Shown here: positions 3,634 to 61,345 of the stretch, one piece after another
How positions within the stretch are numbered: the stretch's first letter is position 1
How the letters are laid out: the number at the start of each line of letters is the position of its first letter
Assembly (NCBI GenBank): GCA_036509895.1
Contig: DATCEV010000034.1
Coordinates: 13,437-77,436 of the forward strand
Source: Verrucomicrobiia bacterium
Lineage (GTDB): Bacteria > Verrucomicrobiota > Verrucomicrobiia > Limisphaerales > UBA11358
DNA: 64,000 nt
Direction: 5' to 3'
Made by a program: the position numbers and the translations under genes
The notes under the pieces: generated by a model
Database searches by the model: none
What the model saw: the letters and a program-made list of their open reading frames with translations, nothing else
What the model was told of the DNA's origin: nothing

Positions 3634-4245
3634 ATGAAAGCCTTTCTGCATCGCAAAAAAAAATCACCGGCTTTCTCGCTGATTGAACTTCTCGTGGTGT
3701 CGGCGTTGATGATCATTTTGACGACGATGATGTGGGGATTCGCCTCGGCCAGACATCAGCGCACGCAAAGGCAGCTTTGCGCGGACAACTTGCAAAAAAT
3801 TTATGTGTCCCTGCAAATTTACGCGAACGATTTCGGCGGCAAATTGCCGGAAAATACCAACGCCCAAACTTCCGAAGCCGTGTTGACCGGACTCGTGCCG
3901 CGTTACACGGCGGACACTTCCATTTTTATTTGTCCGGGCGGGCGCGACCCTCAAATCCCTTCCGGCGAACCGCTCGTCAATCACAAAATCAGTTACGCCT
4001 ACTACATGGGCCGGAGCCTGACCACGCCGCAAAATGCTTTGATGTCTGACCGGCAAATCAACACTTTGCCCAAAGTCGCGGGCGAATTGGTTTTTTCCCC
4101 GGATGGAAAACCACCGGGAAACAATCATTACAAATACGGCGGCAATTTTCTTTTTTGCGACGGCAGCGTGCAAGCGAGCAAGCCGCGCCTGGCGTTTTCA
4201 CTCGCCGCCACGCAAGGAGTCGTGCTATTAAATCCAAAACCGTAG
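3634..4245 (+). CDS. Prepilin-type N-terminal cleavage/methylation domain protein with H-X9-DG-like C-terminus (pseudopilin-like)
   Basis: Internal ATG at 3634 gives [29 protein letters not shown], a type IV prepilin leader/methylation motif. The C-terminus ...[18 protein letters not shown] resembles the H-X9-DG motif, with one extra residue. Confidence 0.8.
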
Positions 4246-6863: not shown

Positions 6864-8948
6864 TTATTTAATTTCGGAAAAAAACGATTTTGCTTGCGCT
6901 CGCGCCTGCCGGATCAAATCCAAATCCTCCGTCAGATTTCCAAAACGCAATTTCATCGCGCCGCTTTGCTCGCGGCCCAGCAATTCACCCGGCCCGCGCA
7001 ATTTCAAATCCACTTCGGCAATTTTGAAACCGTCGTTCGTTTCTTCCAAAATTTTCAGACGTTCTCGCGCCTCAAGATTTTTCACATCAGAAATTAAAAT
7101 GCAAAAACTCTCATGCGCGCCGCGCCCGATGCGCCCGCGCAACTGGTGCAACTGCGCCAAACCAAACATTTCTGAATTTTCGACCAGCATGATCGTCGCG
7201 TTCGGCACGTCCACGCCGACCTCGATGAGCGAAGTCGAAAGTAAAATCTGGATTTTGTTCGCGCGAAAATCGGCCATCACATTTTCCTTTTCCGCAGATT
7301 TCAAACGCCCGTGCAAAAGCCCGACACGAAATGGCGCGAACAATTTTTTAAGATTTTCAAATTCCGTCGTCACGGCCTTCAATTCTTTCGCGCCCGAATT
7401 TTCCACGCGCGGATAAACGACGAATGCCTGCCTGCCGGCGGCGAGTTTTTCGCGGATGAATTCCAGAACCTTCGGCAATTTTTCCGTCGCACGGACGAAT
7501 GTTTTTATTTTTCCACGACCGCCGGGCATTTCTTCAATCGTCGAAACGTCCAAATCGCCGTAAAGCGTCAGGCCGAGCGTGCGCGGAATCGGCGTCGCCG
7601 TCATCACGAGCAGGTGCGGATAATTTCCCTTGCGAACCAATTGCTCGCGCTGCGCCACGCCAAACTTGTGCTGCTCGTCAATTATCACTAGGCCAAGGTT
7701 GGATAATTGAAAATTTTCCGTGAAAAGCGCGTGTGTGCCGACGGTCAAAGTTGAAGGTTGAAGGTTGAAAGTTGAAGGTTTGTCCAAGCGACGCATTCCT
7801 GATTTTTCAACCTTCAACTTGCAACTTTCAACTTGCAACGAAGCGTCCTTCCGGCTGCCCGTTTGCAACAGAACTTTGACGCCCAAAGGTTCAAACCACT
7901 TCACAAAATTACGATGGTGCTGTTCCGCCAGGATTTCCGTCGGCGCCATGAGGGCGACGTTGAATCCGCTTTCAATCGCCATCAATGCGCTGCAAGCCGC
8001 GACCGCCGTTTTACCGGAACCGACATCGCCTTGCAACAATCGCCGCATCGGATGCGCGCCGCTCATGTCCGCGCGGATTTCGCGGAGAACTTTCGTTTGC
8101 GATTCGGTCAACTTGAAACCGAGCCGCGTCAAAAACGGTCTCATCAAGCGATTGTCGCCGCTGCACGGCAGCGCTTTGGCGTTCGTTTCAAATTTTTTTC
8201 GTCGCGATTGAATTTGCATTTGCAGTGAAACAAATTCTTCGAGCGCCAATTCTTTCCGCGCAATTTCCACATCCGAAATTTCTGCGGGAAAATGAATCAT
8301 ACGAATTGCTTCGCTGGTTGAAAGTTGAAGGTTGAAAGTTGAAGGTTTTGTGAGATCAACCGCGCCGGTTTTTTTAACCTGCAACTTGCAACTTTCAACC
8401 TGCAACATATTCGATTCCAACGTTCTCCAAATCAGTCCGCGCAGCCAGCGTTGCGGCAAACCTTCCGTGAGTGGATAAATCGGCGCGATGCGGTTGATGT
8501 GAATGAAACTTTCTTCGCCGGGTTCGATGACTTCGGTTTCGGGATGGTCCATCGTGCGCGGCTTGGTTTCCTTCAATTTTCCGAAGACGAAAACTTCATC
8601 GCCCATCGCGAAATAATTTTCCATGAACGGCAGATTCCACCAGCGGCAATGCAGTCGCGCCGAGCCGTCGTCCAAAATGATTTCAAAAACAGATTTGTTG
8701 CCGCCGCGAAAACGCTTGAGGCCGAGCGCGACAATTTTTCCGCGCGCGGTGAACGGCTCGTCTTTGGTGAGTTCGGAGATTTTGCGGAAATGCCGGCGGT
8801 CTTCGTAACGCTTGGGCCGGTGCAGCAGCAGATCTTCAATTGTGAAAATTTCCAGCCGCGCGAGTTGCGCCGCGCGTTCCGCGCCGACGCCCCAAAGCGA
8901 AGCGACGGGATTTTTCAGCGGCGAAATTTTAGTTTCCGGCGGCGACAT
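6864..8948 (-). CDS. recG: ATP-dependent DNA helicase RecG (with two in-frame repeat-derived segments)
   Basis: ORF 6864..8990, trimmed to MSPPETKISPLK. Motifs present: GDVGSGKT, MAPTEILAEQH, IIDEQHKFG, VMTATPIPRTL, STSLIEVGVDVPNAT, QLHQLRGRIGRG. Confidence 0.9.
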   Translation of the reverse strand: MSPPETKISPLKNPVASLWGVGAERAAQLARLEIFTIEDLLLHRPKRYEDRRHFRKISELTKDEPFTARGKIVALGLKRFRGGNKSVFEIILDDGSARLHCRWWNLPFMENYFAMGDEVFVFGKLKETKPRTMDHPETEVIEPGEESFIHINRIAPIYPLTEGLPQRWLRGLIWRTLESNMLQVESCKLQVKKTGAVDLTKPSTFNLQLSTSEAIRMIHFPAEISDVEIARKELALEEFVSLQMQIQSRRKKFETNAKALPCSGDNRLMRPFLTRLGFKLTESQTKVLREIRADMSGAHPMRRLLQGDVGSGKTAVAACSALMAIESGFNVALMAPTEILAEQHHRNFVKWFEPLGVKVLLQTGSRKDASLQVESCKLKVEKSGMRRLDKPSTFNLQPSTLTVGTHALFTENFQLSNLGLVIIDEQHKFGVAQREQLVRKGNYPHLLVMTATPIPRTLGLTLYGDLDVSTIEEMPGGRGKIKTFVRATEKLPKVLEFIREKLAAGRQAFVVYPRVENSGAKELKAVTTEFENLKKLFAPFRVGLLHGRLKSAEKENVMADFRANKIQILLSTSLIEVGVDVPNATIMLVENSEMFGLAQLHQLRGRIGRGAHESFCILISDVKNLEARERLKILEETNDGFKIAEVDLKLRGPGELLGREQSGAMKLRFGNLTEDLDLIRQARAQAKSFFSEIK
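7746..7839. repeat. Heptamer-stem hairpin repeat, copy inside recG (in frame)
   Basis: A run of GTTGAAG/GTTGAAA heptamers (7749-7780), a spacer, then the imperfect reverse complement ttcaaccttcaacttgcaactttcaacttgcaa. Translated as LQVESCKLKVEKSGMRRLDKPSTFNLQPSTL. Confidence 0.85.
8316..8406. repeat. Heptamer-stem hairpin repeat, second copy inside recG (in frame, same orientation)
   Basis: ggttgaaagttgaaggttgaaagttgaagg ... aacctgcaacttgcaactttcaacctgcaac. Translated as LQVESCKLQVKKTGAVDLTKPSTFNLQLSTS. Confidence 0.85.
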
Positions 8949-9014
8949 CGCCCGCACGATACAAACCTGGCGGAAGAGAATCAAACGCAACCCGCTTTGT
9001 CGCGGAGCGACGAT

Positions 9015-13007: not shown

Positions 13008-13065
13008 ATTTATTGCGCGGCGACGAGATTGAGTGAAAAATAAGTGAAGGCTAATTCGTCGAGCG

Positions 13066-16000
13066 ATGACCAACAACCCAACACTGAAAACTAATGACCT
13101 CGGAAGCGCGCAAATTCAAATTTCCGCGCCGCCGAAACAGGGGCTTTACGACCCGCAATTCGAGCATGATGCCTGTGGCCTCGGTTTCGTCGTTCACATC
13201 AAAGGAAAAAAATCGCACCAGTTGGTCAGCGACGCGTTGAAAATTTTGGTGAACCTCGATCATCGCGGCGCGGTCGGGTGCGAACCGAACACGGGCGACG
13301 GCGCGGGCATTTTGATCCAGATCCCGCATGATTTTCTGGCTGCGCAAACGGCGAAGCTCGGTTTCAAACTTCCTGCTTTTGGCGAATACGGCGTCGGCAT
13401 GTTGTTTTTGCCAAAAGATTCCGCCGAACGCGAAGCGATCAAAAAAGAATTCGCCAAAATCGTTTCCGGCGAAGGCCAGAGCGTTCTGGGCTGGCGCGAC
13501 GTGCCGGTGGACAATTCCTCGCTCGGCAACGGCGCGAAAAATTCCGAGCCGTTCATGGCGCAGGTTTTTGTCGGCAAAAATTCTTCGCTGAAAGACGAAG
13601 CGGCCTTTGAAAGAAAACTGTTTGTCATCCGCAAGATCGCGGAGCAGAAAATCCGTTACGGCGGGAAAATTCCCGGCGGCAGATGGTTTTACGTTTCCAG
13701 CCTGTCGGCGCGCACGATCATTTACAAGGGCATGTTGATGTCCGAGCAGGTGGAAAAATATTACGCCGACCTCCGCGACGAAAGCGTGGTCACGGCGCTC
13801 GCGCTCGTGCATTCACGTTTCAGCACGAACACTTTTCCAAGCTGGGATCGCGCGCATCCAAATCGCTACATCGCGCACAACGGCGAAATCAACACGCTGC
13901 GCGGCAATGTAAATTGGATGCACGCGGCGCAGGCGAAGTTCAAATCAAAATTGTTCGGCGACGACATCAAAAAAATTGTTCCCGTCATCAACACGGACGG
14001 CAGCGACTCGGCGCAGTTCGACAATTGCGTGGAGCTTTTGACGCTGGCCGGTCGCGAATTGCCGCACGCGATGATGATGATGATTCCCGAGCCGTGGGAA
14101 AATCACGAAAGCATGGACGCCGAACGCCGCGCGTTTTACGAATTTCATTCGTGCCTGATGGAGCCGTGGGACGGCCCGGCTTCAATGGCGTTCACGGACG
14201 GAAAAATTATTGGCGCGTGCCTCGACCGAAATGGTTTGCGCCCGTCGCGTTATTATGTGACGAAAGATGATTTGGTTATCATGGCGTCGGAAGCGGGAGT
14301 TTTGCCCGTCGCGCCGGAACGCATTTTGCAGAAAGGGCGTTTGCAGCCGGGCCGGATGTTTCTCGTGGACATCGCGCAAGGGCGAATTGTCGCGGACGAA
14401 GAACTTAAGAAAAAATATGCGAGCGCGGAGCCGTATCAAAAATGGCTGGATGAACATCACGTGCTTTTGGAAAATTTGCCGGAGCCGTCGCAGGCAACGC
14501 AACCGGATCATCGCAAAATTTTGCAGCGACAACAGGCGTTCGGCTACACGTTTGAGGATTTGCGTTTGATTGTCGCGCCGATGGGCAAGGACGGCGTGCA
14601 ACCGCTTGGTTCGATGGGCACGGACACGCCGCTCGCGGTTTTGTCGAATAAGCCGCAGTTGCTTTACAATTATTTCAAACAACTGTTTGCGCAGGTGACG
14701 AATCCGCCGATTGATCCGATTCGCGAAGAAATTATTACTTCGACGGAAACGATGGTCGGCGCGCGCGGCGGTTTGCTTCAGCCGACGCCAGAAAGTTGTG
14801 CGCTGATAAAATTGAAACATCCGATTCTCACGAATGAGGAATTGGAAAAATTGCGGCACGTGGACGGCGGCGCGTTCAAATGCGTGACGCTGCCGATTTT
14901 GTTTGAGGGGAGCGCGCGCGTCTCGCGTGCAGATTCGGGCGTCGCGCCCGAATCTCTTCGTGCGCCGGACGGCGTGACCAGTGGTTTTCGGCGCGACGCC
15001 GAAAACCACACGCGGGACGCGTGTGCTCCCCAAAAAAATCTCGCAGCCGCTTTGGAAAAATTATTTTCCGAAGCGGACAAAGCCATTGCCGGCGGCGTGA
15101 ACATTTTGCTGTTGTCGGATCGCGGCATTTCGCCCGAACTCGCGCCGATTCCCGCGTTGCTCGCGGTTTCCGGTTTGCATCATCATTTGATTCGCAAAGG
15201 CACGCGCGGCAAAGTCGGCCTCGTGCTTGAATCCGGCGAACCACGCGAGGTGCATCATTTCGCGCTGCTCATCGGTTACGGTTGCAGCGCCATCAATCCG
15301 TATCTGGCGTTCGCGACGTTGGACGATTTGATTCAACAAGGTTTGCTCGTCAACACGGATCACAAAACGGCGCAGAAAAAATTCATCAAAGCCGTCGTCA
15401 AAGGCGTCGTCAAAACGATGGCCAAGATGGGCATCTCGACGATTCAAAGTTATCGCGGCGCGCAAATTTTTGAAGCCATCGGCCTCAACAGCGAAATCGT
15501 GGAAAAGTATTTTACCTGGACGCCGACGCGCATTGAAGGCGTCGGCCTCGACGTGATTGCGGAAGAAGCACTCGCGCGACATCGTCACGCGTTTCCAGAT
15601 CGTCCGGTCAATGGAGTTTTGGACGCGGGCGGCCAATATCAATGGCGCGACGGCGGCGAATTTCATTTGTTCAATCCGCAGACGATTCACAAATTACAAA
15701 ACGCGTGCCGCACGAATAACGAAAAAATTTATCGCGAGTATGCCGAGTTGATTAACAATCAGGCAAAAAATCTTTGCACGCTGCGCGGCTTGCTCGAATT
15801 CAAATTCGCGGAAAATCCCATTCCGATTGATGAAGTTGAATCCGTCGAAGAAATCGTGAAGCGTTTCAAAACCGGCGCGATGAGTTACGGTTCGATTTCC
15901 AAAGAAGCGCACGAAGCGCTGGCGATTGCGATGAATCGCATCGGCGGAAAATCCAACACCGGCGAAGGCGGCGAAGACCCGGCGCGTTACGTTCTCGAAC

Positions 16001-17820
16001 CAAACGGCGACTCGAAAAATTCCGCGATCAAACAAGTCGCGTCGGGACGTTTCGGCGTGACGAGTTATTATTTGACGCAGGCACGCGAGTTGCAAATCAA
16101 AATGGCGCAGGGCGCGAAACCCGGCGAAGGCGGAGAATTGCCCGGCAAAAAAGTTTATCCGCCGATTGCAAAAGTTCGCGGCACGACGGCGGGCGTCGGT
16201 CTGATTTCGCCGCCGCCGCATCACGACATTTATTCCATCGAAGATTTGGCGGAGTTGATTCACGATTTGAAAAATTCAAATCGCGACGCGCGCATCAGCG
16301 TAAAACTTGTGGCCGAAGTCGGCGTCGGCACCGTCGCGGCGGGCGTTGCCAAAGCGCACGCGGATGTGGTTTTGATTTCCGGTCACGACGGCGGAACCGG
16401 CGCGTCGCCGCTTTCATCCATCAAACACGCGGGCGGTCCGTGGGAATTGGGTTTGGCCGAAACGCACCAGACGCTCGTGCTGAATAATTTGCGCAGCCGC
16501 ATTTATGTCGAAGCTGACGGACAATTGAAAACTGGACGCGACGTTGCCGTCGCCGCGTTGCTCGGCGCGGAAGAATTTGGTTTTGCGACCGCGCCGCTCG
16601 TCGCGGTCGGCTGCATCATGATGCGCGTCTGCCATTTGAACACGTGTCCCGTCGGCATCGCGACGCAAGACCCGCGGTTGCGCGCGCGGTTCGCGGGCGG
16701 CGCGGACAACGTCGTGAATTTCATGCGCTTCGTCGCGGGCGAACTTCGCGAAATCATGGCTCGGCTCGGCTTCCGCAAATTGGAAGAAATGGTCGGGCGC
16801 ACGGATAAATTGATTCCGTGGCACGCGATTGAACATTGGAAAGCCAACGGACTCGACCTCACGCCGATTTTGCATCAGCCGGAAATGGGCGCGGACGTTG
16901 GACGTTTCCGTTCGCAAGATCAGGATCACGGCTTGGAAAAATCTTTGGATGTGACGAAACTTTTGGACATTTGCAAACCGGCGATTGAGCGCGGCGAAAA
17001 AGTGAAAGCCGAACTGCCGATTCGCAACGTCCATCGCGTTGTCGGCACAATCACCGGCAGCGAAATCACGAAAAAGCACGGCCCGAACGGATTGCCGGAA
17101 GACACCGTGTGGTTGAAATTCAACGGCAGCGCCGGGCAAAGTTTCGGCGCGTTCATTCCGCGCGGCATGACGCTCGAACTGGAAGGCGATGCGAACGATT
17201 ATTTCGGCAAAGGCTTGAGCGGCGGGAAAATAATTGTTTATCCGCCGCGCAATTCCACGTTCGTCGCCGAGGACAATATCATTATCGGCAACGTGGCGCT
17301 TTACGGCGCGACGGCGGGCGAAATGTTTGTATGCGGCATGGCGGGCGAACGCTTTGCTGTTCGCAATTCTGGCGTTGATGCGGTCGTCGAAGCCATCGGC
17401 GATCACGGCTGCGAATACATGACCGGCGGTCGCGTGATTGTTTTGGGAAAGACCGGACGCAATTTTGCCGCGGGCATGAGCGGCGGCATCGCGTATGTTT
17501 TGGATGAAGCCGGCGATTTCAAAAATCATTGCAACATGGAATTGGTCGGCCTCGAAAAACTTTCGGACGCGGACGAAATCGAAGAAGTCTGGAAATTGAT
17601 CCAGCGTCATCAAACTTACACGCAAAGCGAACGCGCCGCGAAAATTCTCGGCGACTGGAAAAATTTCATTCCGAAATTCATCAAAGTTTTGCCAAAAGAT
17701 TACGCGCGCGTTTTGCAATCGTTGAAAAAAGCGCAATCGCAAGGCTTGAGCGGTGACGACGCAATCATGGTCGCGTTCGAGGAAAACATCCGCGACGTCG
17801 CTCGCGTCGGCGGCGGATAA
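13066..17820 (+). CDS. gltB: Glutamate synthase large subunit (with in-frame palindromic insertion)
   Basis: A 1584-aa ORF. It has the N-terminal amidotransferase start ...HDACGLGF, an FMN/Fe-S central domain (...GEGGEDP..., ...[16 protein letters not shown]...) and the C-terminal GXGXG domain. Confidence 0.95.
14907..15031. repeat. Nested GC-rich palindromic element inside gltB (in frame)
   Basis: Outer stem ggggagcgcgcgcgtctcgcgtg / cacgcgggacgcgtgtgctcccc. Inner hairpins are gattcgggcgtcgcgcccgaatc (14932-14954) and ggttttcggcgcgacgccgaaaacc (14983-15007). Translated as [42 protein letters not shown]. Confidence 0.85.
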
Positions 17821-17822
17821 GC

Positions 17823-17968
17823 AATCCGCAGATTACGCAGATGAACGCAGATTTTCAGAAATAAACTGAACTGAATGAATTTAAGAAAATTCAAAACCGC
17901 AATTATGACCGTTGCGAAAGCAAAAAAAAAACGCCTTTAATCTGCGTTCATCTGTGAAATTTGCGGAC
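17823..17968. repeat. Long inverted repeat immediately downstream of the gltB stop (ATCTGCG-type family)
   Basis: Arms are aatccgcagattacgcagatgaacgcagatt (17823-17853) and aatctgcgttcatctgtgaaatttgcggac (17939-17968). They are about 30 bp with a few mismatches, around an 85-nt loop. Confidence 0.75.
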
Positions 17969-18413: not shown

Positions 18414-19970
18414 TTGGGCAAGCCAACCGGATTTTTAGATTTTAATCGCGAACTGCCGCTGGATCGTTCGGCTATCGAACGCATCCGCGACTGGAACGAA
18501 TTTCATCTGCACATGTCAGACGCCGACCTGAAAAAGCAGGGCGCGCGCTGCATGGATTGCGGCATTCCGTTCTGCCAGCACGGCCAGCTTGTCAGCGGCA
18601 TGGCCAGCGGCTGCCCGATTCACAATCTCATTCCCGAATGGAACGATCTGGTGTATCGCGGACTTTGGAAGGAAGCGCTCGAACGTCTTCACAAGACGAA
18701 TAATTTTCCCGAATTCACCGGGCGCGTTTGTCCCGCGCCATGCGAAGGCTCATGCGTTTTGGGAATCAACGCGCCTCCGGTCACGATCAAGAATATAGAA
18801 CAGGCCATCGCCGATCACGGCTGGGCGAACAATTGGATCGTTCCCGAAATTCCGAAAAAGCGGACGGGGAAAAAAGTCGCGGTCATCGGTTCCGGTCCCG
18901 CCGGACTTTCTGCCGCCGCGCAATTAAATCGCGCTGGCCATCTCGTCACGGTTTTCGAGCGCGCGGATCGCCCCGGCGGTTTGCTCATGTATGGCATTCC
19001 CAACATGAAGCTCGACAAAAACGAAGTTGTGCTGCGGCGAATTAAAGTGCTCGAAGCGGAAGGAATTCAATTTGTTTGCAATACGGAAGTAGTGGCACAG
19101 GCGTCTCGCCTGTGTGATAAGTCACAACAAGAAACGCCAACTCACAGGCAAGATGCCTGTGCCACTAAAAATTATCCGGCGGAAAAATTATTGAAAGAAT
19201 TTGACGCTGTGATTTTGGCGACGGGCGCGACCAAACCGCGCGATTTATCCGTTCCCGGACGCGAATTGAAAGGCATTCACTTTGCGATGGATTTTCTCAC
19301 CGCGAACACGAAAACAATTTTGGACAATCACAAAAACGGAAATTTTATTGACGCAACCGGCAAGGATGTGATCGTCATCGGCGGCGGCGATACCGGAACG
19401 GATTGCGTCGGCACTTCGATGCGGCATGGCTGCAAAAGTTTGGTGCAAGCGGAAATTTTGCCGATGCCGCCGCCTGAACGCGCGAAGGATAATCCGTGGC
19501 CCGAATGGCCGAAGGTTTATAAAATGGATTACGGTCAGGAAGAAGCCGCCGCGAAATTCGGCGCCGATCCGCGCACTTATTTGACGACCGCGACGAAATT
19601 TGAGGGCGACGCGCATGATCATGTCAAAGCCGTTCATCTCGTGCAAATCGAATGGACGCAAAACGACAAAGGCCAGTTCATTCCGAAACACGTTCCCGGA
19701 ACGGAAAAAGTTTTGCCCGCACAACTCGTTTTGCTGGCGATGGGTTTTCTCGGACCGGAACAGCCGTTGCTTGAAGCGCTCGGCATCGAACGCGACGCGC
19801 GCTCAAACGCAAAAGCCGAATTTGAAAAATACGCGACAAATCTTCCGAACGTTTTTGCCTGCGGCGATTGTCGTCGCGGCCAAAGTTTGGTCGTCTGGGC
19901 ATTCAACGAAGGTCGCGGCGCGGCGCGCGAGTGCGACCGTTTCCTCATGGGCGCAACGGATTTGCCGTGA
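18414..19970 (+). CDS. gltD: Glutamate synthase small subunit (NADPH), TTG start, with in-frame palindromic insertion
   Basis: [15 protein letters not shown]..., the Fe-S Cys motifs ([18 protein letters not shown]), and the dinucleotide folds [14 protein letters not shown] and [13 protein letters not shown]. Confidence 0.95.
19091..19166. repeat. GTGGCACAGGC-type palindromic element inside gltD (in frame)
   Basis: Outer stem agtggcacaggc / gcctgtgccact. Inner hairpins are cacaggcgtctcgcctgtg and cacaggcaagatgcctgtg. Translated as [25 protein letters not shown]. Confidence 0.85.
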
Positions 19971-20125: not shown

Positions 20126-20335
20126 ATGGCTAGCGGCAAAGTCAAATGGTTTGATAACAGAAAAGGGTTTGGTTTCATTGCCCAAAATTCCGGCCAGGAT
20201 GTTTTCGTGCATCACACTTCCATCGTTGGCGAAGGCTACAAAACTTTGAATGAAGGCGAGGAAGTTTCCTTTGAAGCGATCCCCAGTGACAAGGGATTGA
20301 AAGCCCAAAATGTCCATCGCCTGCACGCGCCTTAA
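20126..20335 (+). CDS. Cold-shock protein (CspA family)
   Basis: [33 protein letters not shown] carries the RNP1/RNP2 motifs. AGGAG sits 6 nt upstream of the ATG. Confidence 0.95.
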
Positions 20336-20415: not shown

Positions 20416-21636
20416 ATGCCGGATTTCTGTGTCACGCCTGTCGCCAGCCTTTACGTCCACGTTCCTTTTTGCGCGCAGAAATGCGCGTATTGCGCGTTTT
20501 ATTCCGAAGCGTCCAGCGGCGAACTGGTCAACCGTTTTGTCAATGCGCTCATCCGGGAAATGGAAATCGTCGCGGACGATCTCAAAACGAAAACCATTTT
20601 CTTTGGCGGCGGAACCCCGTCGCTCTTGAATCTGCGGCAGTGGGAACAGATTCTCCGCACAATGGAAAAACTGGATCTGCTCGGCGCGGAAGAATTCACC
20701 GTCGAATGCAATCCGGCGACCGTTTCGGCGGACAAGGCAAAATTGTTCCGCGACTTCGGCATCAACCGCATTTCCATGGGCGTGCAATCGCTTGACGAAA
20801 AATTGCTCGACCGGCTCGGACGGATTCATTCGCGCGAAATGGTTTTCAAGTCGTTCGATATTTTGCGCGCCGCCGGTTTTGAAAACATCAATCTGGATTT
20901 GATGTTTGCCATTCCCAGCCAGACGATGGAAATCTGGCGCGACACTTTGAACGAGGCGATGGCGATGCAAAGCGAGCATTTGTCCAGCTACGAAGTCATT
21001 TACGAAGACGACACGCCGCTTTATGAACAACTCAAGGCCGGTGAATTTGCCGTGGATGAAAATCTTGCCTGCGAAATGTATGAGGAATTGATTTCAACCG
21101 CGACGCGCGCCGGTTTTCAGCAATATGAAATCGCGAATTTTGCAAAACAGTCCAAAGTCCAAAGTCCAAAACCCAAAGTCAATGGGACCGAAATAACTTT
21201 GGACATTGGACATTGGACGTTGGACATTCCGTTTTTCGCGTGCAAACACAACGTCATTTACTGGCGCGGCGGAAATTTTTATGGATTGGGGCCGAGCGCG
21301 ACGGGTTACGTTCGCGGCGCGCGGACAAAAAATTGGGCGAACACCCAACTCTATTGCGAGCAATTGGAAAAAGGAAAACGCGCGATTGAATCCCGCGAAG
21401 AATTATCACCGCTGCGACGCGCCGGAGAAATCGCCGCGTTCGGTTTGCGGATGAACGCGGGCTGGCCGTTCATAGAATTCAAACGCGCAACAGATTTTGA
21501 TTTGCGGAATGAATGGTCGTCGGAAATGGACCAACTCGCCGAACGCGGCTGGGCTTCACGCGATTCAGAAAAATTTCAACTCACACATCAAGGACTGCGC
21601 TTCGCAGATTCGGCGGCGGAACTTTTTTTACGTTAA
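20416..21636 (+). CDS. hemW: Radical SAM haem chaperone HemW / HemN-like (with in-frame repeat insertion)
   Basis: LYVHVPFCAQKCAYCAF (the CxxxCxxC radical-SAM cluster), GGGTPS, and HNVIYW near the HemN_C region. Confidence 0.85.
   Translation: MPDFCVTPVASLYVHVPFCAQKCAYCAFYSEASSGELVNRFVNALIREMEIVADDLKTKTIFFGGGTPSLLNLRQWEQILRTMEKLDLLGAEEFTVECNPATVSADKAKLFRDFGINRISMGVQSLDEKLLDRLGRIHSREMVFKSFDILRAAGFENINLDLMFAIPSQTMEIWRDTLNEAMAMQSEHLSSYEVIYEDDTPLYEQLKAGEFAVDENLACEMYEELISTATRAGFQQYEIANFAKQSKVQSPKPKVNGTEITLDIGHWTLDIPFFACKHNVIYWRGGNFYGLGPSATGYVRGARTKNWANTQLYCEQLEKGKRAIESREELSPLRRAGEIAAFGLRMNAGWPFIEFKRATDFDLRNEWSSEMDQLAERGWASRDSEKFQLTHQGLRFADSAAELFLR
21150..21225. repeat. Heptamer-stem hairpin repeat (GTCCAAA type) inside hemW (in frame)
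   Basis: gtccaaagtccaaagtccaaaacccaaagtc (21150-21180), a 16-nt loop, then ctttggacattggacattggacgttggac (21197-21225). Translated as SKVQSPKPKVNGTEITLDIGHWTLD. Confidence 0.85.
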
Positions 21637-46263: not shown

Positions 46264-46292
46264 TTAAAATTTTTCGGGAGAATTTTTTTCTC

Positions 46293-46320
46293 TCAACTTT
46301 CAACCATCAACTCTCAACTT
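46293..46320. repeat. Four tandem TCAACNN heptamers (single arm of the heptamer-stem repeat family) in the rplI 5' region
   Basis: tcaactt tcaacca tcaactc tcaactt. No complementary arm lies nearby. Confidence 0.7.
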
Positions 46321-55940: not shown

Positions 55941-56372
55941 ATGTTCAAAAAAATTTTAGTTGCGCTTGAAAACAGTCCGGCGGACGAAACGATGTTGCCG
56001 CAAATCGCCGCACTGGCAAAAAAACTTGCCTCGGAACTTTTATTTTTGCACGTCGCCGACGGCTGGGTCGCGCGCAATTTCAATCAACTCAAGCTTGCCG
56101 AGTCCGAAGAAATGAAAAGCGACCGCGAGTATTTGGAAAAAGCCGCCGACAAAATTCGCGCCGAAGGAATTTCAGTTTCCACCATGCTCGCGCTCGGCAG
56201 TCCGCCGACCGAAATTTTGAAAGTCGCCGATGCTGAACGGTGCAGTTTGATCGCGATGACCAGCCACGGCCATCGTTTGTTCGGCGACATTTTTCACGGC
56301 AGCACCATCAACGAAGTCCGTCACAACACGCACATTCCAATTCTCCTCGTGCGCGCGAAAAAAATAAAGTAG
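55941..56372 (+). CDS. Universal stress protein (UspA family)
   Basis: MFKKILVALENSPADE...LIAMTSHGHRLFGDIFHGSTINEVRHNTHIPILLV. Confidence 0.85.
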   Translation: MFKKILVALENSPADETMLPQIAALAKKLASELLFLHVADGWVARNFNQLKLAESEEMKSDREYLEKAADKIRAEGISVSTMLALGSPPTEILKVADAERCSLIAMTSHGHRLFGDIFHGSTINEVRHNTHIPILLVRAKKIK

Positions 56373-56431
56373 CGCAGGCATCTTGCCTGCGTTTTTATTT
56401 AAAAATTTCGCAGGCTGGATGCCTGCGCTAC
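56369..56431. terminator. Palindromic element forming two convergent terminator hairpins; it contains both flanking stop codons
   Basis: gTAGcgcaggcatcttgcctgcg-tttttatttaaaaattt-cgcaggctggatgcctgcgCTAc. Hairpin 56373-56391 plus a T-run serves usp. Hairpin 56409-56427 plus a T-run on the minus strand serves the VOC gene. Confidence 0.55.
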
Positions 56432-56823
56432 TTTAATTGAGAATCTTTTGGCCGTTCCACCAGATGCAACAAATTTCCTTCGCAATCTTCAAAAAATAAA
56501 ACGCGCCCGCCGCCAGCAGCCGGACGAATTTCTTCCGAAAATTTTAGGCCGCGTTTTTCCAATTCACTTTTCGCCCCGTCCAACGAATCCACGCGCAACG
56601 CGATGTGCCGAAAACCGGCGAGCTTGTTGTTGCCGCGATTTTCCGGCGCGCCGTCCGCCGCGTAAATTTCAAACCAGCCGCCGCCCGGCAACGCAATCAA
56701 ACACGTTGGCGGATTCTGTCCGTTATTAAAAATTTCACGCGCGTCCAATTTTTTTTCATACCAATTTTTCAGTGCAACCGGATTTGGCGACGGAATCGCA
56801 ATGTGTTCAATGGAAATATTCAT
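56428..56823 (-). CDS. VOC-family (glyoxalase/bleomycin-resistance fold) protein
   Basis: ORF trimmed to MNISIEHIAIPSPNPVALKNWY...GFRHIALRVDSLD...FFEDCEGNLLHLVE. Confidence 0.8.
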   Translation of the reverse strand: MNISIEHIAIPSPNPVALKNWYEKKLDAREIFNNGQNPPTCLIALPGGGWFEIYAADGAPENRGNNKLAGFRHIALRVDSLDGAKSELEKRGLKFSEEIRPAAGGGRVLFFEDCEGNLLHLVERPKDSQLK

Positions 56824-56910
56824 GGCTGAATTAAAAATTAAAAATGCAAAATTAAAAACTAAAATCGTGTTTGACCGCAAAAGGTTTTGTAACGTTTGCT
56901 AAATAAATTT

Positions 56911-60083: not shown

Positions 60084-61325
60084 TCATTGAATGTCTGTTT
60101 GTGTCAAATGTTGCATTTCAATTCCTGCAAGAATGAATGGTCCAATGCCTTTCAAATCATTTTTCACAATCGGCTCGCTGACATAATAATCAAAACTGCC
60201 GTCGCGCGAACGCCCTTTTGAATTTGTAAAACCGAGTCCGGCGACGGAACAACAATTCGTCAGCGACCAATTGTTTCCGCTGTCCGCAACAATTAAATTT
60301 TTTATGATTCCGGCAAAACCCTTTTCTGCAAATGCAGAATAATTTTCCGGCAAATAATTTTTATTCACGCCTTTGGCCAGCGCATAAACAAACATCGCCG
60401 ACGCCGTCGCTTCCAAATAATTTCCTTTGCGACTGCCCGCGTCCATGACCTGCCACCAAAGTCCGGTTTTTGCGTCCTGAAATTTTATGGCGCTCGCACA
60501 AAGTTTCTGAAAGCGCGAAAGGATTTCCGCGCGCGCCGGATGATTTGTCGGAAAAAAATCGAGCGCGTCCACGAGCGCCATTGCATACCAGCCGTCCGCG
60601 CGCCCCCAAAAATTTGACGAGCAGCCCGTTAGTGGATTTGCCCACGGCTGAATTTTTGCCGCGTCCCAGGCGTGAAAATACAAACCGGTTTTGGTGTCGT
60701 AACAATGTTCGTCAATCAAGTGAAATTGTTTCGCCACGTCGTCAAAATCATTTGTCTCGCCAAAATTTTTTGCGTATTCCGCATAAAAAATGTCGCCCAT
60801 ATAAATTCCATCGAGCCACATTTGATTTGTGTAACGCTGTTTGTGCCAGAAGCCGCCGTCAAAAGTTCGCGGCTGGGAATTCAATTGCGCGCGCAAAATC
60901 GTCGCGGCGTTTTTATACTTTTCGTCGTGCGTGATTTGCCAAAGCGCGAGAATTGTTTTGCCGGAATTCAGCGCGTCGAGTTGAAATTCTTGCGGCTTGT
61001 AAGTTTGAATTTTTCCATCCGGCGAAATGAACGAACCAATTACTTTTTCAGAAAAATTTTCGCAACACGCGTCGTGCGTTTGCTCGCTCAATTTCAAAAG
61101 CGAAAGCGTGAACAAACCGACCGTGTAATCCCATTTTGTTTTACCGCCCGGTTTCCAAACGAGCGAATCATCGAGCCGCGAAATTTCCGAATTTGCAAGG
61201 CGTTGCGACCATTCGAGCGGCGTCGCGCCGGAAAATTTTTGCGGCGCAGCAAATGACGGAAAAGGCAAAAAGTAAAAGGGAAAAAGTAAAAGATTGAAAG
61301 CGACGCCAGTGAATTTTTTTTTCAT
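60084..61325 (-). CDS. GH105/GH88-family unsaturated rhamnogalacturonyl/glucuronyl hydrolase
   Basis: A signal peptide, then MWLDGIYMG, FWGRADGWYAMALVD and GLWWQVMD, typical of the YteR/YesR family. Confidence 0.8.
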   Translation of the reverse strand: MKKKFTGVAFNLLLFPFYFLPFPSFAAPQKFSGATPLEWSQRLANSEISRLDDSLVWKPGGKTKWDYTVGLFTLSLLKLSEQTHDACCENFSEKVIGSFISPDGKIQTYKPQEFQLDALNSGKTILALWQITHDEKYKNAATILRAQLNSQPRTFDGGFWHKQRYTNQMWLDGIYMGDIFYAEYAKNFGETNDFDDVAKQFHLIDEHCYDTKTGLYFHAWDAAKIQPWANPLTGCSSNFWGRADGWYAMALVDALDFFPTNHPARAEILSRFQKLCASAIKFQDAKTGLWWQVMDAGSRKGNYLEATASAMFVYALAKGVNKNYLPENYSAFAEKGFAGIIKNLIVADSGNNWSLTNCCSVAGLGFTNSKGRSRDGSFDYYVSEPIVKNDLKGIGPFILAGIEMQHLTQTDIQ

Positions 61326-61345
61326 TTTGCCTTTTAGTTTTTAAT

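Follow-up and report, generated by a model that had tools for sequence, protein, structure and literature searches.

Heptameric repeats are over-represented in bacteria and have barely been studied (PMC4692102, citing Mrazek 2007). The short tandemly repeated repetitive sequences (STRRs) of cyanobacteria and other bacterial heptameric repeats are built from tandem units of 7 nucleotides (nt) in few copies, with about four preferred (PMC4692102), and the TAACTGA repeats of Beggiatoaceae, cyanobacteria and Bacteroidetes are likewise direct repeats of a heptamer, which occur in two to six copies at many loci per genome with a patchy distribution, and whose tolerated positions depend on what the unit can encode (PMC4679880). 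In this study, we examined a hairpin with arms of tandem heptamers (GTCCAAA units) at 21150-21225 inside the hemW gene of a Verrucomicrobiia bacterium, in a stretch of 64,000 nt that is here called the window (contig DATCEV010000034.1, positions 13,437 to 77,436). Like the STRRs and other heptameric repeats, arrays of the hemW type have a lineage-specific unit and an unexplained origin, and they may be dispersed in a similar way. In 1997 Vioque reportedly showed that STRRs can form a hairpin within the RNase P RNA gene of heterocystous cyanobacteria, and in 2008 Elhai is said to have located small dispersed repeats within heptamer arrays. In the literature searched, we found neither in-frame heptamer satellites nor any description, for Verrucomicrobiota, Acidobacteriota or Planctomycetota, of arrays or hairpins built from heptamers.

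Three further systems resemble the locus in other respects. Repetitive extragenic palindromic (REP) sequences that are mobilised as doublets by REP-associated tyrosine transposases (RAYTs), the so-called REPINs (PMC3116915; for GTAG-tagged REPs, PMC3733652), combine inverted ends, a poorly conserved spacer and a hairpin, as the hemW element does, and their single ends are common and remnant-like, similar to the one-armed heptamer arrays described below. Rickettsia palindromic elements (RPEs, PMC10969869) lie in frame in unrelated housekeeping genes and are translated at positions compatible with the fold, again as in hemW. The reading that we favour, and consider fairly probable, is that the hemW element is a heptanucleotide satellite that lies in frame, together with its inverted copy, in the only permissive loop of HemW, where it is tolerated and does the host neither good nor harm. 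Quasi-palindrome template switching (Ripley; Lovett and co-workers) can create or extend inverted repeats on both sides of a short spacer without a transposase, and can carry changes over from one arm to its partner; it is known for producing point and complex mutations where imperfect palindromes already exist, and is not known to generate whole inverted heptamer arrays.

The 5' arm of the element (21150-21180, plus strand) consists of three GTCCAAA units, one ACCCAAA and a closing GTC; the loop AATGGGACCGAAATAA (21181-21196) measures 16 nt and has no relation to the loops of orthologous or paralogous copies; and the 3' arm (21197-21225) runs CTTTGGA, CATTGGA, CATTGGA, CGTTGGA and C, giving four (T/A/G)TTGGAC units. 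When the 3' arm is read in the register GGACATT, its end coincides exactly with the Ile-Pro codons ATT CC. Direct reading, Tandem Repeats Finder (period 7 at 21149-21180 with 4.6 copies and at 21199-21228 with 4.3 copies) and folding all agree with the first-pass annotation, made from the letters alone, in its description of tandem 7-mer arms around a 16-nt loop, and its in-frame reading KQSKVQSPKPKVNGTEITLDIGHWTLDIPFFACKHN was likewise correct when the translation was checked. As RNA the hairpin 21150-21225 folds at -34.4 kcal/mol (z -4.90), with none of 200 shuffles as good, and as DNA at -21.8 (z -4.85). The stem of 25 base pairs (bp) is interrupted, with helical blocks of 6, 6, 6 and 7 bp and one mismatch per heptamer. 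Both Tandem Repeats Finder and a strict scan place the element among tandem heptamers of at least three head-to-tail units, and the window has three strict period-7 arrays where Markov shuffles would give 0.05, an excess of about 60-fold. The GTCCAAA family occurs once in the window, and the GTTGAAG family is represented there by two copies and two weak arrays. In a search of Rfam, nothing in the window reached a gathering score, and only look-alikes of microRNA precursors were returned, at 25-30 bits against cut-offs of about 100. The best matches in the genome collection are 85-86% identical, and the peat metagenome run X1 contains the sequence.

The host open reading frame (ORF; 20416-21636, plus strand) encodes 406 residues and is a radical SAM family heme chaperone HemW (TIGR00539, 2.9e-76, above the cutoff). 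Pfam recognises Radical_SAM at residues 13-180, and a HemN_C match at residues 330-396 lies below its gathering score (19 vs 24 bits, E 0.0015). The TIGR00539 match is split into two stretches with a break near residue 245, and nearly all distant homologues, retrieved by a search of 1.8 billion representative proteins, also align as two stretches, breaking at query residues 243-247. Between the strand YEISNFA and the motif HNxxYW, HemW has a linker of 7 residues (consensus RPGRECR) in 109 of 123 diverse full-length representatives, which is the canonical linker that the first-pass annotation had given as NFA-KPG-x3-HN..YW, while the window protein has 34 residues there. The codons IPFFACK (residues 271-277, 21226-21246, plus strand) are the counterpart of RPGRECR, and therefore the 27 codons before them, residues 244-270 (21145-21225, plus strand; KQSKVQSPKPKVNGTEITLDIGHWTLD), are extra. 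The proline codon of IPFFACK is conserved and forms a fixed right boundary for every occupant of the linker. The claim that the segment is inserted relative to HemW generally is thus borne out, with the refinement that HemW at large lacks a comparable segment and most close orthologues hold some insert, of different kinds.

The AlphaFold2 model of the protein, built from an alignment of 134 sequences, has a predicted local distance difference test score (pLDDT) of 93.8 and a predicted template modelling score (pTM) of 0.92. Residues 245-276 are modelled without secondary structure, at pLDDT values of 79, 48 and 62 in blocks of 10 residues, with both flanks at 96 or above. Because of these low values and the absence of secondary structure, the insert is predicted to be a floppy, unstructured surface loop between well-folded parts, and the model would place it between the last strand of the N-terminal part and the helix that opens the C-terminal part.

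Orthologous linker intervals were compared in 161 sequences (the window, 80 genome loci and 80 metagenome loci, of which 151 are distinct) from relatives in Limisphaerales or Verrucomicrobia subdivision 3 with 67-89% protein identity. The interval has a length that is a multiple of three and is free of stop codons in all 161. In sister families whose unit contains TGA, a substitution sits exactly in the unit where the TGA would fall in frame, and in L179 and L188 this TGA is replaced by TGC or TGT. Because the intervals remain in frame and because of these substitutions, the segment appears to be translated, as the first-pass annotation had proposed, rather than intron-like or bypassed. Directly upstream of hemW lies a cold-shock protein gene (CspE/CspA-like, 20126-20335); cold-shock proteins are noted to bind heptamer repeats in single strands at a ratio of one protein to each heptamer (PMC4679880), and the neighbourhood of this gene and a heptamer-bearing hemW is probably coincidental.

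What fills the linker is hypervariable among the relatives: its length lies anywhere between 42 and 192 nt, the 151 distinct sequences hold over 25 different occupants, and every occupant sits between NFA-(R/K) and the conserved proline codon. A baseline linker of 15 residues, RGELSGEKIPARACK, was found in 30 of the 151. One-armed arrays of about four heptamers (CTCAACx, TTCAAAA, CTCCGAA, AATCCGC, CCCCAGA and others, together with the 8-mer AATCCATC) account for about 60. Heptamer hairpins occur in several lineages, with units GTCCAAA (the clade of the window), GTCCACA, GACGAAT, CCAATTG and one 8-mer, and GC-rich palindromes are also present, including GTAG...CTAC REP doublets in L208 and L235 (cf. 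PMC3733652, PMC3116915). A resident array of about four heptamers abutting the conserved proline codon is thus, as far as these alignments show, carried in the linker of the Limisphaerales clade of the window. Among Limisphaerales loci, 18 of 26 other heptamer arrays also lie in coding-like frames.

The occupants change rapidly. Over 2.4 kb, L139 (linker site at 3721-3792) and L267 share 97.6% identity, but at the linker the former has CCCCAGA x4 and the latter CTCAAC x4, a contrast that speaks for very fast replacement or homogenisation of arrays, and sister lineages with 93-98% identity in the flanks have entirely different linker peptides or none. A neighbour-joining tree of the flanks, intended for counting independent gains, was poorly resolved with states interleaved, and nearest-neighbour comparisons were used instead. 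Some metagenome contigs (X1, X3, X5, X7) skip 106-150 nt at the linker; a reading of these as excision joints was rejected, since related strains whose linkers are in other states account for them, and rare variants do not show up in Logan contigs.

Within the linker, the one-armed arrays bear marks of evolution in place. When right-aligned on the proline codon they fall into a single register, and most belong to one length class (57 or 60 nt); units are 87.6% identical within an array against 59.1% between orthologues at equal position, as would be expected of concerted evolution by point mutation and homogenisation. Eight of 13 consensus units, in the register of the proline codon, are joined by single substitutions, along the path CAAAATT - CAAAACT - CGAAACT and the path CAAAATT - CAACATT - CAACCTT - CAACCCT - CAACTCT / CGACCCT, and mixed arrays such as that of L142 (AAAACTC AAAATTC AAAACTC AAAATTC) look like intermediates. 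The baseline linker reads GAAAAAATT before the CC of the proline codon, one substitution away from CAAAATT, so that tandem duplication of the local heptamer is the probable beginning of the array. The right arms of the hairpins also end in a common register (GGACATT|CC, CGACATT|CC, GGTCATT|CC and TGGCATT|CC), as would fit a resident array on the right and its inverted copy on the left, but this is suggestive only, since the last three bases are constrained by the flank. For the same reason, the likeness of GGACATT in the window to CAACATT (5/7, same register) was discarded as not significant. Mirrored unit variants between arms, a sign of arm-to-arm copying, were sought by eye in L147, L203 and recG, and none was seen.

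The stem, by comparison, does not seem to be maintained. Orthologous GTCCAAA copies appear to form a decay series: L203 has a nearly perfect stem (-48.8 kcal/mol, z -7.65), L202 and L126 follow at z -5.8 and -5.35, the window element stands at z -4.2 (-34.1 kcal/mol in this series), L201 at z -3.0, and in L213 the stem is mostly gone (z -0.75). In L201 all four left units have become GCCCAAA with the right arm unaltered and no compensating change. Arms have also been lost independently in blocks of exactly three units (21 nt), from the right arm in L121, L124 and L207 and from the left arm in L122 and L204. RNAalifold on six full-length copies returned a covariation term of +1.67, positive values being penalising; pairs are broken in 18 cells and compensated in only 3. 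In many orthologues nothing foldable is present, as in the one-armed L127 (-0.2 kcal/mol, z +1.0). The decay series, the lack of covariation and the unfoldable orthologues largely rule out a hairpin selected by the host, and the proposal of a class of elements selected for structure is weakened at this locus, where the stem probably has no host selection and decays after arising.

The first-pass annotation had also asked whether the 7-nt periodicity always leaves at least one frame stop-free on both arms; the idea that such a period shields a reading frame is wrong on arithmetic grounds. As 7 is coprime to 3, three units show every triplet of the unit in every frame, and an array is either open throughout all three frames or closed in each of them. 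Neither GTCCAAA nor TTTGGAC has a stop triplet, which leaves the hairpin open in all six frames, whereas GTTGAAG contains TGA and needs a substitution such as that seen in the recG copies. By enumeration, an array is free of stops on one strand for 69% of all heptamers, and on both strands for 50%; being stop-free is a common property, not a design.

The recG gene of the window (6864-8990, minus strand) gives a second view of the same kind of site. It contains two in-frame hairpins of GTTGAAG/CTTCAAC units on the minus strand, site A at 7747-7839 (peptide SLQVESCKLKVEKSGMRRLDKPSTFNLQPSTL) and site B at 8313-8406 (peptide MLQVESCKLQVKKTGAVDLTKPSTFNLQLSTS), whose loops have no relation in sequence. 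Both copies have TGC where the unit would give an in-frame TGA, with the codons TTG CAA GTT GAA AGT TGC AAG. The match in design between the hemW and recG elements holds. Both sites vary among 120 RecG orthologues, with a wide range of repeats; site A most often holds RKIVQSPKSKVQSLF, a one-armed GTCCAAA array, and at least four other heptamer hairpins occur there. On this comparison both recG sites behave like the hemW linker, and the GTCCAAA hairpin, described at first as a second family beside that of recG, is one of many. That the units are unrelated is not clear, because G-x-x-x-A-x-x is common to the 5' arms GTCCAAA, GTTGAAG, GTCCACA and GACGAAT, and G-T-x-x-A-A-x to three of them.

Outside the window, GTCCAAA x3 is present in at least 120 contigs of many phyla. 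This breadth was rejected as a sign of horizontal spread, since an arbitrary scrambled heptamer of equal composition, GCATCAA x3, likewise has at least 120 matches and is just as widespread. In some genomes the scrambled control is itself an abundant array family at many loci, for example JANQRS01 (Calditrichia) and JAUCGI01 (Desulfobacterales HSG2), and heptamer tandems, with units peculiar to each lineage, seem to be a general feature of bacteria. Among the GTCCAAA contigs listed, about 70% of arrays are one-armed, often beside arrays of related units, and hairpins of the same unit have unrelated loops of 5-120 nt even within one genome. In four Verrucomicrobiota loci (L005, L014, L017 and L086), GTCCAAA x4 lies in what by eye is a homologous membrane-protein gene (...SKVQSPKS followed by YLLALGFFVLGLMSKPMVVTLPFVLLLLDFWP), and the position looks like another recurrent in-frame site. 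With regard to the concern that the element could be a singleton, there is one GTCCAAA copy within the window, and the unit does recur in recG site A and the membrane-protein gene of relatives. In most unit families of the loci L001-L120 and L281-L400 the 5' arm is richer in G than in C. A universal rule for the 5' arm was tried and abandoned, since AG (25:1) and GT (30:6) held in one set and failed in the control set, where TG/CA held the asymmetry; AGT/ACT was likewise dropped as a signature of all arrays, being present in only 31% of single arrays.

Several observations weigh against a purely local birth of the element, and some of them would suit a non-autonomous mobile hairpin, REPIN-like or resembling a miniature inverted-repeat transposable element (MITE), with heptamer-array ends recognised by a transposase in trans and with one-armed arrays as decayed remnants, an explanation that we hold to be possible but doubtful. 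GTCCAAA is found at unrelated loci and in several genes of related genomes, which purely local birth does not predict, so that ectopic copying or convergence is needed, and the alternating 14-nt pattern common to recG copies A and B suggests copying between loci. The REP doublets in the linker of L208 and L235 mean that mobile hairpins do land at this site. Among the matches listed for loci L001-L120 and L281-L400, drawn from many phyla, the polarity (GTCCAAA)n-loop-(TTTGGAC)n prevails by 18:0, or 40:3 by a cruder count, and the control family has only (TTGATGC)n-loop-(GCATCAA)n, at about 6:0. Such a fixed polarity in each family is expected of terminal inverted repeats; since it stays the same under reverse complementation, neither the direction in which the DNA is replicated nor that in which it is transcribed can be its source, and either the generating process itself or element-like descent is suggested. 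The polarity is not predicted by simple template switching that starts from arrays of either orientation, nor obviously explained by the quasi-palindrome route. In the peat metagenome, depth spikes over the left arm of the hemW element, with several different loose flanks, and REPINs too have conserved ends, a poorly conserved spacer and remnant singlets (PMC3116915). As regards translation, metatranscriptome X25 returned contigs from distant relatives only, none of them covering 21072-21522. Against a mobile hairpin stand the loops, which are alike in neither sequence nor length, the arms, which are arrays of variable units with no fixed recognition sequence, the common register and substitution network of the one-armed hemW arrays, which indicate evolution in place rather than repeated insertion, and the breadth of the scrambled heptamer, which makes the distribution uninformative. 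No target-site duplication was seen at hemW or recG: the hemW flanks AAACA| and |ATTCC show no direct duplication, nor do those of both recG copies. No transposase turned up in a window that was not searched exhaustively and whose ORFs were not screened for transposases, and we know of no association of heptamer hairpins with RAYTs. The unrelated loops, the lack of target duplication and the prevalence of one-armed arrays favour an origin without a transposase.

That the loop SKVQSPKSK...TLDFGHWTLD has gained a function for HemW, for example in partner binding or membrane contact, is improbable: the arm-encoded peptide is fairly conserved in the closest relatives (P0001-P0026), and contributions of palindromic inserts to proteins have been discussed for RPEs (PMC10969869), but the conservation fits the short divergence time, the loop is modelled without structure, relatives with nearly identical flanks carry other peptides or none, and the arms are deleted as blocks of 7 residues. 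Very improbable, and largely refuted, is a hairpin in mRNA or DNA that the host selects at the boundary of the radical SAM core and the C-terminal part, for ribosome pausing during folding or cluster insertion or for regulation; under this explanation any folding sequence would serve. Many different hairpin-forming sequences do lie at this very inter-domain position and the hairpin of the window is stable; however, the 30 orthologues mentioned have the short baseline, the approximately 60 one-armed arrays fold near zero energy (as in L127), orthologous hairpins decay without covariation, and HemW outside the clade has the 7-residue linker. Hardly credible at all is a contingency locus in which 7-nt slippage toggles hemW by frameshift. 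Three does not divide its unit length, which is also true of known phase-variable repeats, and array lengths change over evolutionary time, but every orthologous interval is in frame, each arm deletion of the GTCCAAA series removes exactly 21 nt, the arrays are short (about four units) and HemW is a housekeeping protein, with the caveat that assembled contigs could hide minority frameshifted variants.

On the favoured reading of an in-frame satellite with an inverted copy, the array would have been born from the local heptamer AAAAATT adjoining the proline codon and would then have changed in place by point mutation and homogenisation. In several lineages, including that of the window, an inverted copy of the resident array may have been made a few nucleotides upstream, giving the hairpin, and the likeliest routes would be template switching during replication (quasi-palindrome formation) or a templated repair that copied another array. 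The hairpin would thus be a by-product of repeat birth, needed by neither HemW nor its mRNA, and would decay later, and selection would only keep the insert translatable and harmless, with a length that is a multiple of three, no stop codons and mostly polar residues. A more far-reaching and rather unlikely proposal is that in several bacterial phyla an unrecognised process, polar with respect to strand, writes short arrays of tandem heptamers into DNA along with inverted copies of them, even within ORFs; templated addition at the 3' ends on both sides of a break, or a dedicated hairpin-copying enzyme, may be candidates. If true, it would account jointly for the heptamer excess, the fixed polarity, the unrelated loops and the fast replacement of arrays in genomes 98% identical, and the HemW linker and the two RecG loops would serve as natural reporter sites.

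Other repeats are also present in the window. An imperfect palindrome of 135 nt with 47-nt arms (79% complementary) lies in frame at 14902-15036 in gltB, the large subunit of glutamate synthase (open frame 13048-17817), and the NCBIfam GltB profile matches in two stretches that break exactly at this palindrome. GTAG-tagged, GC-rich doublets of REP type occur at 19090-19167 (TAGTGGCACAGGC...GCCTGTGCCACTA), in frame in gltD, the small subunit (ORF 18414-19970), and at 56362-56438 (GTAGCGCAGGC...GCCTGCGCTAC), where no long open frame spans them. An inverted repeat of short CGCAGAT-type units (TCCGCAGATTACGCAGATGAACGCAGATT / AATCTGCGTTCATCTGTGAAATTTGCGGA, with an A-rich spacer of 85 nt) at 17825-17967 occupies the gap between the end of the gltB frame (17817) and gltD. 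A period-7 hairpin of AAAAGGC/AAAAAGT units is located at 61260-61335, near the 5' end of the ORF at 60087-61340 (minus strand), and one-armed period-7 arrays at 46290-46319 (CTCTCAA-type), 1333-1361 (GTTGCAA/GTTGAAA-type) and 56829-56864 (AATTAAA-type); these four are mostly close to ORF starts.

The locus carries several implications. Repeat DNA of the STRR and heptamer kind can live in essential genes as translated sequence, which was known for the larger Rickettsia palindromic elements and, as far as the literature searched goes, neither for arrays of heptamers nor for Verrucomicrobiota. The hemW linker amounts to a natural experiment, with one codon-precise site in 151 distinct orthologues, a concerted coding satellite, frame-keeping losses of 21 nt and repair of stop codons in just the unit where it is predicted. 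For annotation, such inserts split profile matches, as in HemW and GltB, and inflate the apparent diversity of metagenome proteins, and the hypervariable peptides that they create should not be taken for new functions. How the heptamer repeats of bacteria originate is unexplained, and here the single polarity of the inverted arrays offers a concrete lead that can be tested. The wider phenomenon of codon-precise repeat nurseries in housekeeping proteins is more interesting than the single element.

When set against the known systems, the hemW element departs from each of them in part. Most STRRs and GGGAATC repeats lie between genes, and coding strands have fewer of them than expected (PMC4692102), whereas the Verrucomicrobiota arrays appear to be mostly within genes, in frame and translated, the element studied here being inside hemW; unlike STRRs, they are often paired as inverted arrays with a fixed polarity. 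The TAACTGA repeats have stop codons in the forward orientation and lie just upstream of start codons, with one indirect repeat among 170 sets (PMC4679880), whereas arrays of the hemW and recG type are stop-free inside ORFs and those of the hemW type include many inverted pairs. With REPINs the element shares two inverted conserved sequences and a spacer that form a hairpin; it differs in being intragenic, in having arms of tandem heptamers rather than palindromic REPs tagged with GTAG or CGTC, the GTCCAAA arrays being neither imperfect palindromes nor self-complementary and carrying no GTAG tag, and in lacking compensatory changes (18 broken against 3 compensated, +1.67). The inverted arms recall MITEs, without their target-site duplication or a conserved internal sequence. 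As an in-frame, apparently fold-compatible insert in a housekeeping gene the element resembles RPEs, which are set apart by description, with about 100-150 bp, a family consensus and a conserved peptide against about 80 nt and no conserved core, and which arrive by insertion, while at least the one-armed heptamer forms would evolve in place. The frame-shifting unit changes of phase-variable loci are replaced here by 161 of 161 intervals in frame and deletions of 21 nt. The hemW case thus combines features of STRRs, TAACTGA repeats, REPINs and RPEs, and lacks defining features of REPINs, MITEs and contingency loci.

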